The notes beneath the pieces were generated by a model. That model was not told the origin of the DNA. It searched no databases and worked only from the letters and a program-made list of their open reading frames with translations. The position numbers were made by a program, and so were the translations under genes. A stretch of 62,784 bases of DNA, the filler included, from Circinaria calcarea (lineage: Eukaryota), in NCBI GenBank assembly GCA_051942165.1. It is 7 parts of 7 records of this genome, joined end to end, with 100 filler letters (N's around TTAATTAATTAA, not from the genome) between each part and the next. Parts side by side here need not be neighbours in the genome. Positions count along the whole stretch, not along the records: positions 53,913 to 62,784 come from JAVECS010001036.1; 6 more parts are not named here. One strand, written 5' to 3'. Shown piece by piece: positions 52,808 through 60,662 of the stretch (position 1 is its first letter; every line of letters begins with the position of its first letter).

Positions 52808-53812
52808 TCAGACCCCAATCGCCTGCTCAAACTCCATATCCTGACTAGAGACCCGATCGTCAAACCGCGTTGGCCGCGCCTCAATCTGTAGCGCTTGGAA
52901 CTGGTGCCAGCAGCTGCAAGTGACCATCAGTACATGAATCCACCTTTCCACTGCAGGTCAGGAGGGGCGGAGGAAATGACTTACTCAGGCGCCTGAAGCA
53001 CATACCTCCCCATCGCTTCCCTAAACCGGCTCTTATACTCCCTCGGCGACGTGACGGTGGGCCGATTCTTCCCGCGATCCTTTATCCAGCTCTCGAGCTT
53101 CTTGTCCCAGGTATAGGTGCGGATGCAATCGATGATGCCCACGACCAACTCTTTCCTGTCTTCATCGATGGCGATCATGAGCGAGTAGTCCATGACGTTC
53201 TGCCGCGAGAGGAAGAGCGTGTCATTGTAGACGCTTGCTCTGAGCAGCTTCTTGGAATGCTCGCGCGCAAATAGGGGCGACTCGTAGATGAACTCGACCA
53301 TGTTTTCGTCCAAGAGGACTTCGTTCTGCTCGCCCGTGGATTGGATGCGCCGGTTGCGCATGGAGCCTTTTAGGTCGAAGATACGCGTAGGCGAGCGGTC
53401 GTAGAAGAGGTTCTCCATGACGAGGAGGAACCAGTTAAACTCGACGCCGGTGACGGGGTTTTTGATGACGATCTGGTAGAAGCCGAGCATCTTGGCGATG
53501 ACGGACGGAAGCGCATGGAACAGGGCCTCGGACATGATCCGAAAGTAAGCGGGAGCAAACCGAAGGAAGGCTTGCGTCTCGATGGGGGAGAGAGATTTGA
53601 GAACAAGGCGATCGTCGAGTGTCTTGAGGAAGACCGACTTAGTTTTGCCACCTTTGGAATCCCATTTCAAACATCTAGATAAGGACTCGACGATTCGCTC
53701 TGCAACGCCACATTTTCGGCGAACAGCATCGAATTGTTCGGCGTAGAAAACCTTGCAAAGCATTTTTGCCGAGCCCTCTTGGAATTGATACTTGAGATGG
53801 GTGCCGGTCGAT
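52808..53812 (-). CDS. FAB1: 1-phosphatidylinositol-3-phosphate 5-kinase, C-terminal kinase domain, 5'-truncated; exons >53812-52985, 52913-52808
   Basis: WDSKGGKTKSVFLKTLDDR, VMENLFY, FDLKGSMRNR, VMDYSL, GIIDCIRTYTWDKKLESWIK, PTVTSPREYKSRFREAM. Confidence 0.96.
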
Positions 53813-53912
53813 NNNNNNNNNNNNNNNNNNNNNNNNNNNNNNNNNNNNNNNNNNNNTTAATTAATTAANNNNNNNNNNNNNNNNNNNNNNNNNNNNNNNN
53901 NNNNNNNNNNNN
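53813..53912. other. Artificial contig-joining linker
   Basis: N44-TTAATTAATTAA-N44. Confidence 0.99.
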
Positions 53913-54524: not shown

Positions 54525-56932
54525 TCAGAAAAAGGAGCCTTTTGCGGGTTTTGCAGCGACACGGTCCACCGGCTCGCCATCCTCCTCGGACCAAGCCTCC
54601 GTCGCAGCAAAATTGGCTAGCCGGCGCGGAGGTGGACAATCGAGCGCATCGAACCTTTTTCCCGTGGCCTTAGCCACAGTCCATTGGACAGCTAAGCGCA
54701 AAGCAAAAGCGCCAAGGCCCCATAGTAAACCACCCACAGGAGCCGCGACAAAGGCGCCTGGGTGACCGTCAGTTTCTGCAATACAGCGATGATCGTGGCA
54801 TGGTAACGAACCAAAAACGCTCCAATCATCAGCATAGAGCCCGTTCTCGAGCAGCAGGAGGTTTGCCCCGTCTCGCGCACTACCGGTATAGACTGTTCCG
54901 AAGATGAACACCGTCAACAGGCCGCCGAGACCACCGACCACGACCTCAAAACCTCGCCACCAGTAGCATCGGCTGTTGAGTCCGATGACAAGCACAGGGA
55001 CCGAGCTCGCACTGACAAGATCAGAGATTAAGTAAATCTGTAGAACGCTTGGACTCTTTAAAGCCACGACGACAACCGGGATAATGACAAGGATGACCGC
55101 CAATCGGATCCACCAAAAGTTCAACCTATTACGGAACAAGTCGTTACTACCGGTAGACACCATGGCTGACTGTAAAGTGTCGAACGCGGCGGTACTGAGA
55201 GAAACTGTCATCACTAGCACGATGCCCACAACCCATGCGGGGAGTTGCTCAAGAAGGAGAAAGAACGCAATACTGCCTTCCTGAGGTGGATCGCCCGGCC
55301 AAGCACCCGTCCAGGCTGCTAGCAGTCCCGTCGTGCCCACAAGGGTAAGAATGATCGCCACAGCCACTGTAGCAATCGAGGTTCCGATGACCAAGTCCTT
55401 GTCGGTTTTGGATGCAAAGGTTCGCATCCAAAAGCCGGAGATGAAGAAGTCATTGGTCAGAATTGCCACCGGGAGGATGTAGATAAGTTGCCAGCCCAGC
55501 AAGCTGGAACCGAGGAGCCCTGATGACTCGACCAAACTCCTGTCCACATGCGTCTCGACTCCAACAGTGATAACGGCAATGATGATTAAACCAAGCACCA
55601 TGGCACCTTGGATGTTGTCTGTTATAAAGGAGATGCGAAAACCACCCAGCGCTAGGACCCACATTAGACAGCCCAATACGCACGGGTCCAAGACTGCCTA
55701 CAGGTATAAATGGTAGTGACCCCACATTCAACGATCACAGCGGGGAGCCCATCCAGGCCGGTCAAGGCACTGATGATCTGCTGCAGTGCAGACAGCTCTG
55801 CAACCATGTAAAGAAACAAGGTGACTAAGCTAAGGGATATTGAGACTAGCAACTGATTGGGCAGGATGCGAACTCACGTCAATAGGCTCAGGTAGAGTGC
55901 GGCCACTATCCCGTACCTTTGCCTCGTCCACTCAGTGAGTACAAAGCCCTCCGGACATTTCCTCCTAATGATAGGGCCGAGCCAGCCAAAGGCTAGAAGT
56001 GGCAGTGAGGAAGCCAGCGCGTAGACAACCAGTCCCTGTACCCCGGCGATTGTAGAGATCTCCGGATAAGCAAATAGGATGCCTGAGCCCAAAGCTATTG
56101 GAATCACAAATAACGGCCTAAATCAGCAAATGCGTCTTATCAAGCAAGGCGGAAGAAGGGGAAGCGGCAGCACGTTCCCCACGCAAGCATTAACTTGATC
56201 GAGTAGTCACGGTGCGATCTCAGCTTCGCGCGGATATGGCTCGGCAGATCTCTCCAGGCCATTGGCTTCGAGTTGGATCTGTGAGGATTGCCAGCGCTCA
56301 GCGCCCGTAGTGAAGCCGCACAATATCCCCACACTCAACAATACCACTGATCGGGCCAAGGGAATCATTCGATCCCGTCAAGGCGCACAAACAGCAGCAT
56401 CCCGAGCACAGGAGCTTGTGTTGACTCTGCTGATACGAACCTGGTCATCATGTCCCTTTCATGACTCCGTAGCATGTCTGCCAAAGCAGTGTTGTTTCTG
56501 CTCGCGATTGGAGCCTTCGCTGCCGCTTCACATAGTGATTGCTTGTGTACGGATACACTCACCCGAAGCTACGAAATTGAGGGCGAGTGGGATCGCTGTA
56601 GAGAGTATGTCAGCCAGGTCTTGCACACACAGCCAGAAGGACAGGTCCAGGGACGTGGGTCAATAGGTGAAGAAGGCTGTCTCGCCACGCGCAAGAGGTC
56701 TAACCCTTCTGTGTCCGGTTGGCGGCCAGGAACTCCGACTTGGATTGATGCCGCCAGCGCCAAGCAATGCAGACACCTACAAGCCTGTATGAAAGATGAT
56801 CAGTGGTACTCTTGGACGGTTCGAGTTTTGGTATTTCGTAGACAGAGGGTAATATCGATAGGGCGCGTACAGGAATAGTCCATAAGTCACGTAGATGATG
56901 GCGTTCGATGCCTCAAACGACGGCTGACCCAT
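54525..56932 (-). CDS. Sodium:solute symporter family transporter (Dur31/NCU01977-like, putative thiamine or precursor uptake); exons 56932-56871, 56784-56705, 56595-56563, 56094-55878, 55829-55702, 55651-54812, 54757-54525
   Basis: MGQPSFEASNAIIYVTYGLFL, EFLAANRTQK-AIPLALNFVAS-ALGSGILFAYPE, IYT-SLGGFRISFITDNIQG, FWMRTFASK; many TM helices; all introns GT-AG. Confidence 0.9.
56175..56316 (-). promoter_or_regulatory. TPP riboswitch aptamer in intron 3 (56095-56562) of the SSS transporter
   Basis: Minus strand reads CUUCACUACGGGCGC...(extended P3)...CUGAGAUCGCACCGUGACUACUCGAUCAAGUUAAUGCUUGCGUGGGGAA: CUGAGA at 56218-56223, P2 ACGG/CCGU, GAU-CAAG-UUAAU-GCUUG-GCG P4/P5 core. Confidence 0.92.
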
Positions 56933-57780: not shown

Positions 57781-60662
57781 TTAGCGGTTGCTCCCGGTGT
57801 TGTTCGTCGAGGTTGCCGTGTTTCCTTCTGTGTTCGCTGGCGGCCAGACGTATGGAGCAGGCATCGGGTAGTTGTGGTATTGGATATAGGACCCTGTGTT
57901 CTGAGGATACTGGAACTGACCCATTGTCTGAGACAACTGTTGCTGCGCGGTTCCATGGATAGGGCTACCATTGTGCGTAGCGCCGGTAGTGTCGCCATCA
58001 ATATTCGGTTCTTGAGTGCCGTATTGTCCGTATTGAGGAGCGTAGCAAGGGTAGTATGGATACTGGGCATACATCGCCGGAGCCATGGGAGTATGAGACA
58101 TGTTCTGGGATGGGCTGACACTGAATAGAGTAGCAGCGGCGATCGGGTTAATTCCCATCGCAACCGCACGATGATACAAAAGAGCGAAGGAGTCAGGAGA
58201 CTCGAGACCGTTGCGGTTCCGAGGACTGCCTGCAGAGGTCATTCGTGAACGACGCGATAGGCTATCAGAAGGCTCTTTGAGTTCAACGCGAAGATGGGTT
58301 CCTTGGATGAAGCGCTGTCGGTATAGCTGATCAGTTTGGCAGTCATGTGTGAGACACTCAAAGGACTTACGTCATGTGAGATAGCCCTCAAAGCTTCCTC
58401 TTCATGGCTGAACTCGATGTATGCGAACACGTTAAGCCCGGTCGTAACTATACTGTCGTTAGCAAGTGTTCGCAATGGAGGTTGAATAACCAGAGGCTTA
58501 CCGTTGGGTGATGGCTTCGAAATAACCTCAATTCCATTGATCCGGCCACAGGACCCAAATACCTCAGCGAGCTGTTCCTGAGTGACTGTGGATGGCAAGT
58601 TCCCAACAAAGATGCAACAACGATCAGCAGCTCGCCTCATACGTGCTTGCGGCGAATTATAGTCACGGATAGGACTACCTCTAGCGGCAGCTGGAGGAGT
58701 CATATGGCGGCTATTGAGACGGCTACGAATTTCATCCGGGACTGGTGGCTGCTCAAGACGATAGGTTGCACTGTCTCGCATACCCTATTACTGGTCAATA
58801 TCGAAGATAGTACCCAGCAAGTGTATCTTACAGATTGAGCATCACGGCAATCTTGAAAGTATGCAAACATAACCCAGATACCATCTGTTACCGGTCAACC
58901 ATGATCATCTTGTCTAGAGAGTATTCCTTACCTGGAAGACGGAACATCTCTTTATCAGTCGGAGTACAGAGCCAGATCTTTTCCAGGGCACCGTATCGAG
59001 ATAAGACGCTACGAGCTTCATCCTCCGAGATTGGACCTCCAGCAATTCGCGAAAGGTACAGGGAACCTGAAGTTGAAGTCAGTTGATTAAGGAATCCGAG
59101 CTCCGGGTTCGGCAGGGTGTTCTTACGATTAACTCTAGCACGCTCCGTACGGCACGAACGTCCGTCGATAAGCAAACCTCGACCATTCTGGATTGCGCGC
59201 TCCGAGTCGGCAAGGTGCTAAAGTTGTCAACAGGGTCGTATATGAACAGCTCGACAAACATCATACCTCGTACTGGCAAAAAGCATATGGCATGCCTCTA
59301 CTATCGCGACGGATTTTGACATATACGGTACCGAAAGCCGAGAACTCGCGTTGCACCGAGTGTTCGAGCTGGTCGTCGGTACGTGAAGTTGAAAGACTGT
59401 GATTCATCAGCTGAAGCGATCGGGTACAAAGTCGGCTTGCTTACTTGGCTACGAAAACGCAAGCATTTGGTGGCAGAACAGCTTGGGCATTATCGCCATC
59501 GATCTGAAGACCGGCTCTATCCTCACGGGGACGAAACTGCACCGTGTCATCCCCAACTTGTAGGCAGTGATGTTAGCGCGTACTCTACATAGAAGACGAG
59601 ATTTGAGCGGGAAGCTAACCTTTAGTTACTTGTTCTGGAGTCCGGGTAACAAAAGGATCGGGTTGACTGGCAGACTCTTGGACGAAGCCGCTCCGACGCC
59701 AGGTTGGACTATCCATGATGGATGACTGCTTACGCTGAGCTGTTGGAGATGATCCAGCGGAGGTATTACTGTAACGGGTGGCTTTGTCCCAGGTAGCCTT
59801 CTGAGAAGGAGAAGTCTCGACGGCACCAAGGCCATGAGGAGTGTCGATGCGATTTCCTGGATGGACATAGTGACGGCTGGCTGGATGATCTCCAGAGGAT
59901 CCTTCGGTGTAGTCATCGACACCGCCAAGTTGCGTAGACTTTAAAGAACGAATGAGTATTGCTGGATCTAGAAGAGAGACAGTCAGTTGAAGATGGCATG
60001 TCTTGGGTCGGGGCCGTAGGAAAGGGTTGAAAAGATGGAGTGACACAGGAATCCATGTAGGAATGTAACACAGGCACGGATGCGGAAATACCCAAACGCT
60101 AGAAACACGTCGATATCTACGAAGGCCAACAGGTTTGGAACATGAACAGACCACAAGACTGTAAAAATCAAGAATGCTGATGCGCAAGAGGCACATGATA
60201 CAGCAGTGTGTGAAATCGATGCAAAAGGTACGAGTCTGTAGCAGCAACGCGCTGGGAACATGAGCAAAGACTGACAGCTTTTCCAGAAGCCGCGATTCGC
60301 CAATTGATTGGCAAGAGTCTTCTACCGCGTAACATTGGCTATGCCACCTCCTCAGACGCAGAAGCGTGAGAGTGCTTGGTGGCAATGTGGACATAGAGGA
60401 GGGATACATCCACGACTGGCAAGAAGTGGAATGCAAGCAGAATGACTGGGGTGAATGACTTACCGTTGACCTCTTGTGGAGTAACAGGAACGCTGTCGCC
60501 GGCTGCAGTGCCGCCATACGTGCTGGCTGGAGAAGGCTCGTTAAGAGACGCTTGCTTGACCTTGGATGTACTCTGCTTGTCAAGATTGGGAATGACAATC
60601 TTGGCGGGATACTTGGACGCATCCTTGAAGGACTTGTCAGGGGTAGCAGGTGAGTAAGACAT
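57781..60662 (-). CDS. RIM4: Rim4-like meiotic RNA-binding protein with three RRMs and a Q/Y/P-rich low-complexity C-terminus; multi-exon, first exon tentative
   Basis: PPNACVFVAN, FSAFGTVYVKIRRDSRGMPYAFCQYE, IDGRSCRTERARVN, SLYLSR, IFVGNLP...FAYIEF; tail MYAQYPYYPCYAPQYGQY. Confidence 0.8.

Follow-up and report, generated by a model that had tools for sequence, protein, structure and literature searches.

The stretch of Circinaria calcarea DNA analysed here (assembly GCA_051942165.1; 62,784 nt, hereafter the window) carries on its minus strand an NCU01977/DUR31-type sodium:solute symporter gene at 54525..56932, whose third intron contains a complete aptamer for thiamine pyrophosphate (TPP). 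We consider it very probable that this intron is a fungal 'Type II' TPP riboswitch by which a thiamine-transporter gene selects among alternative 5' splice sites. All features described below lie on the minus strand. The gene begins with ATG at 56932-56930, and its stop was taken as the end of the open reading frame (ORF) that reaches 54525. Introns 1 (56870-56785, 86 nt), 2 (56704-56596, 109 nt) and 4 (55877-55830, 48 nt) were read from the sequence and agree with joints in RNA contigs, and intron 5 (55701-55652, 50 nt), read in the same way, fits a loose RNA-contig end at 55702. Intron 3 (56562-56095, 468 nt) follows exon 3 (56595-56563); it opens at 56562 with the donor S1 (G/GUGAGU, with GUGAGU at 56562-56557) and closes with AAUAG/ at 56095 (AG at 56096-56095). 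Its removal preserves the frame, joining …PLALNFVAS + G to CU UUG GGC… and giving A-LGSGILFAYPE. The first-pass annotation of this locus had put intron 3 at 468 nt and the others at about 50-110 nt, which our reading bears out. One more short intron is likely close to the gene's 3' end, judging by 18 residues missing from the homologue consensus.

A homologue search with the 274-aa exon translation yielded 1195 proteins at E≤1e-5 (8000 candidates scored). The best 120 of these 1195 share 80-95% identity over 274 aa, and the named ones among the best 120 come almost all from lichen-forming Lecanoromycetes (Lobaria, Varicellaria, Letharia and others). Among the labels that the homologues bear at source are 'urea transporter' and 'Na+/proline symporter', and 4 of the 120 listed have a precomputed PF00474 annotation; a Pfam scan with the translations of two window exons gave no family at E≤0.01. 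For comparison, 80 orthologous loci (L001-L080) were taken from metagenome contigs, in which the corresponding introns measure 370-652 nt. The aptamer core motif CUGAGA…GAUC…UAAU…GCG…GGAA occurs in 57/80 of them, preceding the conserved large exon by about 480-590 nt, and the exon end …PLALNF[IV]AS/G·GU in 52 of these 57, the other five having <380 nt upstream. By sequence, the host gene reads as the NCU01977/DUR31 orthologue, and the large intron that bears the aptamer separates two coding exons.

The aptamer (56164..56319) was delineated with an unrefined MAFFT alignment of 36 distinct sequences (A2), with pair counts, and with a covariance model (R1) built from 32 orthologous introns, the window left out. 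Its P1 pairs GCGGC-UU-CAC (56319-56310) with GUG-CU-GCCGC (56173-56164), and P2 pairs ACGG (56308-56305) with CCGU (56212-56209); P3 is about 80 nt long (56302-56223), J3/2 is CUGAGA (56223-56218), and P4/P5 occupies 56203-56178. The pair counts, the R1 alignment and the minimum free energy (MFE) fold of the isolated aptamer agree on a three-way junction of P1, the P2-P3 arm and the P4-P5 hairpin. We take J3/2 CUGAGA and the P4-P5 segments ACCUGAUC…GCGUAGGGAA, both present here, to be the ligand-pocket sequences of the TPP aptamer. Both CUGAGA and ACUCGAUCAAGUUAAUGCUUGCGUGGGGAA at 56204-56175 align to the RF00059 consensus and are invariant across the orthologues. Further upstream, a conserved 5' block GCGGCU(U)CACUACGGGCGC sits 62-136 nt ahead of CUGAGA in the orthologues and is the canonical 'cACUA-GGGG-uGC' start of TPP aptamers. 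An initial reading of P2 and P3 from the window alone (GUGCG/CGCAC and GCUUC/GAAGC) was discarded, as the orthologue alignment shows GCGGCUUCAC to be the 5' strand of P1 and ACGG/CCGU to be P2.

Across the 36 aligned sequences, P2, the base of P3, P4 and P5 are 99-100% paired, and P1 is 78-92% paired, in part owing to eight sequences that have one loop nucleotide rather than two. Fifteen pairs show changes on both sides, every one of them in P3. Overall, 85.0% of the cells are paired versus 80.5±0.5 in shuffled columns (0/500 reach 85.0), and sliding the partners lowers the figure to 33-42%. The window has all 53 columns that are invariant in the 35 orthologues, including CUGAGA and ACUCGAUCAAG…CUUGCGUG.GGAA. 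Searched against the entire window, R1 gives a single, full-length match at 56328-56152 with 150.5 bits (E 1.7e-40); together with the fold of 56319-56164 and the invariant columns, this secures the TPP aptamer that the first-pass annotation had placed in intron 3. R1 also matches 67/80 loci, and 11 of the 13 loci that it misses have <450 nt upstream of the exon. The remaining two, L053 and L068, show no R1 match in the roughly 1 kb that precedes their conserved exon; the riboswitch may have been lost, the intron may be longer, or the locus may be a paralogue. In the distal part of P3 we observed a conserved island, AGAUCCAACU (56280-56271) … GGAGAGAUCU (56255-56246), with A·U/G·C covariation at its base and a consensus GGAUCCAAC…GGAGAGAUC found in most orthologues and, by eye, in Neurospora crassa. 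Distal P3 was deletable with little effect in N. crassa, according to the text of Li & Breaker (2013, PMC3597705), who also saw TPP binding by the homologous aptamer with in-line probing. By analogy with these experiments on the homologue, the window aptamer would be expected to bind TPP.

Besides the aptamer, intron 3 contains two complementary segments far apart from each other. The first, alpha (GAAGCGGCAGC, 56519..56529), comprises intron nt 34-44 and begins 33 nt after S1. The second, alpha' (GCUGCCGCUUC, 56161..56171), is its exact reverse complement, the helix comprising 11 Watson-Crick base pairs plus one G·U. These coordinates and the perfect complementarity had been noticed in the first-pass annotation, which had placed the second segment just 3' of the aptamer; in our delineation it instead overlaps the 3' strand of P1 (56173-56164). 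Within 56529-56519, AGCGGCAGC fits the published alpha consensus RGCGGYRRY, which lies <60 nt from S1. The alpha-alpha' duplex is predicted at -23.9 kcal/mol, versus -13.9 for P1 alone and -20.4 for P1 with a window-specific GGGGA/UCCCC extension, and both the MFE structure (-164.7 kcal/mol) and the centroid of the ligand-free intron include the alpha-alpha' pair. An extended P1, GGGGA…GCGGC, had been put forward earlier as the competing partner of alpha'. Its GCGGC part belongs to the conserved 5' strand GCGGC-UU-CAC and stands; the GGGGA/UCCCC extension is energetically possible but falls in unconserved columns.

The orthologues carry the case for this pair. We took 41 non-redundant introns, with 200 dinucleotide shuffles of the S1-proximal region for each (104 nt in the window). 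In 41/41, the strongest pairing that alpha' can make near S1 is an alpha-type duplex starting 8-55 nt after S1; this duplex is stronger than any mid-intron duplex in 37/39 introns, and at most 10/200 shuffles match it in 30/41. The alpha core helix has a probability >0.5 in 32/35 introns. Importantly, the flank of the helix outside P1 shows compensatory changes, with A·U 13, G·C 6 and U·A 2 at position -3, and A·U 9 and C·G 4 at position -5. Flank partners from the same species pair in 271/495 cases versus 251.7±7.0 with partners permuted across species (11/2000 permutations reach 271), in a test anchored on the alpha core that in a few sequences (e.g. L026, L031, L054/55) settled on a second CGGYA site. 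Li & Breaker (2013, PMC3597705) report alpha-alpha' pairing in 16/18 riboswitch-bearing species and its validation by compensatory mutations.

The intron also contains an internal alternative donor, AG/GUUCGUA (56434..56442, GU at 56440-56439), located 122 nt into the intron and homologous to N. crassa S3. It had been flagged earlier as the candidate CAG/GUUCGU, and both its conservation and its use in a relative's RNA now support it. The motif GGUUCGU occurs in 38/40 non-redundant introns, 108-255 nt after S1 and amid variable flanks; of the two exceptions, L045 has GGUAAGU and L031 nothing comparable. Splicing from this donor would keep the initial 122 intron nucleotides in the message; these contain an in-frame UGA (56528..56530) that overlaps the start of alpha, so that the translation would run …NFVASGECIRTQAITM and stop. 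In N. crassa, S3 at nt 495-496 reads AUAG/GUUCGU (supplement of Li & Breaker 2013, PMC3597705), and the same paper describes S3 use, giving product III, upon thiamine addition, while stating that no single alternative donor is critical. The conservation of the S3 donor is mentioned neither in the Results, Discussion and supplement legends of that paper nor in the relevant passages of Mukherjee et al. or, for Donovan et al., in sections 9 and 11. The near-invariance of an S3-type donor (38/40 introns) is the one mildly new element of our analysis.

Use of the internal donor was observed in RNA of a relative. The data are assembled metatranscriptome contigs from three runs of one study, with small word shares; such contigs cannot give isoform proportions, and they leave 56134-56265 uncovered. 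In one contig of 1661 nt, introns 2 and 4 are removed and S1 is read through; the retained part ends …GAUGACUAG (CAG in the window, 56443-56441), and the sequence resumes at 56117 after UUUAG/, at an alternative acceptor AG (UUUAG/G, 56118..56119) that lies 23 nt upstream of the main one and is used in this single contig only. In a contig of 200 nt, splicing runs from the internal donor to the main acceptor (56094), and a third contig terminates exactly at …GACUAG. The internal donor is thus spliced in two contigs of the relative, in whose RNA introns 1, 2 and 4 are removed normally. Two short contigs represent unspliced intron.

The invariance of GUUCGUA goes far past the needs of a 5' splice site, and it invites an alternative account, in which a lock of the NMT1 style acts beside or instead of alpha-alpha': in the ligand-free RNA the donor would be masked by pairing with the aptamer, with the P2 5' strand UACGGGC or the P3 3' base CGAAGC as candidate partners, and TPP would free it. 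We regard such masking as rather unlikely, for either partner. The window MFE does pair donor nt 123-128 with ACGGGC at nt 255-260 with a probability of 0.93; yet this register exceeds P>0.5 in only 1/38 introns (mean 0.07). Aptamer segments are the top donor partner in 18/38 introns, and the aptamer 5' half, with 7.7% of the length, takes 24% of the pairing mass, but the partners are scattered (upstream 11, aptamer 5' half 11, donor-aptamer gap 7, aptamer 3' half 7, tail 2) and RNAduplex shows no constant partner site. Donor and partner are both invariant and offer no covariation; the consensus donor GGUAAGU of L045 is unable to form the pairing, and mutation of S3 alone left regulation unchanged in N. 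crassa (Li & Breaker 2013, PMC3597705). The evidence from folding for donor masking by the aptamer is hence weak and inconsistent across orthologues. A dual coding of GUUCGUA, as a weak 5' splice site that is also fixed by ligand-free pairing with invariant aptamer nucleotides and so serves as a second lock, appears improbable to the same degree; if true, it could be the 'undiscovered route' that lets alpha-deleted N. crassa constructs still respond to thiamine.

The 'Type II' reading that we favour would work as follows. At low TPP, alpha' (56171-56161) would pair with alpha (56529-56519), 347 nt upstream. This pairing would break P1 of the aptamer and loop out the intron interior, drawing S1 (56562) near the 3' splice site (56095), so that S1 would be used, the entire intron removed and the transporter made. 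At high TPP, the aptamer (56319-56164) would fold round its ligand and P1 would sequester alpha'. S1 would then lose its advantage, and either the donor at 56440 would be used or the intron retained; with the first 122 nt and their UGA kept in the message, no functional transporter would result. Established directly are the sequence features, their fold, their conservation and covariation, the homology to N. crassa and, from a close relative's RNA, the use of the internal donor. The binding of TPP, the switch's direction and the transported substrate are those that experiments in N. crassa and Candida lead one to expect, and splicing in C. calcarea would by the same analogy respond to thiamine.

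A number of observations weigh against this reading, and the first of them concern the aptamer model. The first-pass annotation had proposed RF00059 as a check and held that the lack of a significant covariance-model hit would refute the riboswitch; at the gathering score (54.3 bits), RF00059 gives no match in the window. Under permissive settings, a local scan does rank RF00059 first among families in the window (28.2 bits and E 0.0032, for 56243-56159); in its alignment P3 is almost absent and the aptamer 5' half misplaced. The score below gathering could mean that the aptamer has decayed to a relic unable to bind TPP, in an intron that is simply long. We hold this to be very unlikely: the window keeps every column invariant in the 35 orthologues, it differs little, by eye, from the aptamer core of N. 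crassa that binds TPP, and the low score is shared by the subfamily, in which it tracks P3 length. None of 20 orthologous loci passes RF00059 at gathering, and RF00059 is the top match in all 12 loci scanned permissively (31.4-49.1 bits); because of these two results we take the failure as a weakness of the model rather than of the aptamer. In the best-scoring loci, RF00059 aligned over the full model, P3 is shortest, and P3 appears as a 41-47 nt insert. From these comparisons the low score is a known type of weakness, that of a short-P3 model facing the whole long-P3 transporter subfamily.

Other adverse points concern the alpha-alpha' pair. For the window alone, the duplex of -23.9 kcal/mol compares with a shuffle mean of -18.6 and is equalled by 9/200 dinucleotide shuffles, and 15/5000 dinucleotide shuffles of the intron yield perfect complementarity over ≥11 nt between its two terminal 120-nt stretches, each a moderate result when the window stands alone. 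The alpha core helix has a low probability in 3/35 introns (L035, L054, L055), the alpha anchor motif is missing in 3/36 non-redundant sequences (L028, L056, L067), and alpha' ends 65 nt before the 3' splice site, marginally over the 'commonly <60 nt' of Li & Breaker. Two further controls contributed little: a mononucleotide-shuffle control was uninformative, as C/U-rich tails yield long chance matches, and an exact-pattern chance estimate (≤1 mismatch, 1.08 expected per window) was beside the real question. That the 11-nt complementarity is a functionless chance match draws what support it has from the energy test on the window; nevertheless we deem it extremely improbable, since position, sequence and pairing are conserved in the orthologues with compensatory changes in the flank, and this pair has passed a compensatory-mutation test in N. 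crassa (PMC3597705). The evidence for the 11-mer from the window alone is modest, and we accept the pair because it is conserved in the orthologues.

The RNA evidence has adverse sides as well. The contigs are 90-97% like the window and come from a relative, not from C. calcarea, and they offer no thiamine contrast. Moreover, a productive junction from S1 to the acceptor occurs in no RNA contig, which is not evidence of its absence, and two contigs read through S1. The gap in cover at 56134-56265 is likewise no evidence of absence.

The surroundings of the gene are briefly noted. The neighbouring ORF at 52981-53856 (minus strand) resembles, as we read it, the C-terminal kinase part of a phosphatidylinositol-phosphate kinase, and the one at 58239-58784 (minus strand) presumably encodes an RRM-type RNA-binding protein (…CIFVGNLPSTVTQEQLAEVF…). 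N runs at 53813-53856 and 53870-53912 enclose TTAATTAATTAA, a six-frame stop linker, and the window around 53813-53912 looks like two pieces artificially joined, or masked. The riboswitch gene lies entirely on the right-hand piece, beyond these N runs.

What the element means for annotation is that ORF-based and Rfam-gathering procedures both overlook the riboswitch intron. Since 0/20 loci pass RF00059 while 12/12 have it as their top match, long-P3 transporter riboswitches are likely under-annotated in fungi. On the analogy of the characterised relatives, the riboswitch would also identify this gene of a lichen-type fungus as encoding a thiamine importer under thiamine control; a literature search on TPP riboswitches in lichens found no relevant paper. 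That the S3-type donor is deeply conserved, and is used in environmental RNA, refines the published model and leaves the known mechanism unchanged.

Among the known systems, the switches of NMT1/THI4 type, as presented by Li & Breaker (PMC3597705), likewise combine an intronic TPP aptamer with alternative 5' splice sites and act as OFF switches. In those, however, the intron sits in the 5' UTR, its proximal donor is masked by P4-P5 nucleotides and repression comes from upstream ORFs, whereas the main element here would be the long-range alpha-alpha' pair in a coding-region intron. DUR31 of Candida parapsilosis (Donovan et al. 2018, PMC5997356) is closer: it belongs to the same family, with Dur31 clade V including NCU01977, and an intronic TPP riboswitch there has its productive splicing repressed by thiamine. 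It differs in belonging to the budding-yeast lineage, in which some DUR31 introns have no alternative donors, and the alpha-alpha' mechanism is not described in the abstract or sections 9 and 11 of that paper. Deletion of DUR31 gives pyrithiamine resistance, which Donovan et al. interpret as lost thiamine uptake (PMC5997356). That Candida DUR31 acts as a thiamine transporter lends support, by analogy, to the thiamine-related substrate suggested for the present gene in the first-pass annotation.

The 'Type II' control described by Mukherjee et al. (2018, PMC5882874) also places the riboswitch in a large internal intron of a gene of the SSS/urea-transporter family, with alpha between donors S1 and S2 and long-distance pairing with P1'. 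The introns are 650-900 nt there, in contrast to 468 nt here and 370-652 nt in the orthologous loci, and 'Lecanoromycetes' is absent from the main text of that paper.

The closest counterpart is N. crassa NCU01977 (Li & Breaker 2013, PMC3597705), known from in-line probing, reporter assays, alpha/alpha' compensatory mutants and thiamine-dependent isoforms. The N. crassa intron is longer (684 nt versus 468 nt here), its alpha-alpha' separation is about 530 nt rather than about 350 nt, and it has three mapped donors (S2, S3, S4), while only the S3-type donor is evident, and conserved, here. The alpha flanks also differ (AGAGCGGUAGC there, GAAGCGGCAGC here), with alpha' changed to match. The genes are nevertheless orthologous, with the intron in both following …ALNF[IV]AS (…ALNFIAS/G·GUGAGU in N. 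crassa) and the exon after it closely similar by eye. Both introns contain a long-P3 aptamer with a near-identical core, an alpha of the form RGCGGYRRY a few tens of nucleotides after S1, an alpha' overlapping the P1 3' strand, and an alternative donor AG/GUUCGU with a premature stop in the retained part. The match to NCU01977 seen in the first-pass annotation is hence sustained for host gene, intron position, aptamer, alpha, alpha' and downstream donor alike, and its assignment to a known class was right, as the N. crassa features map one-to-one. The intron is a new member, from a lichen-type ascomycete, of the known 'Type II' class of fungal TPP splicing switches, whose mechanism is itself already known.

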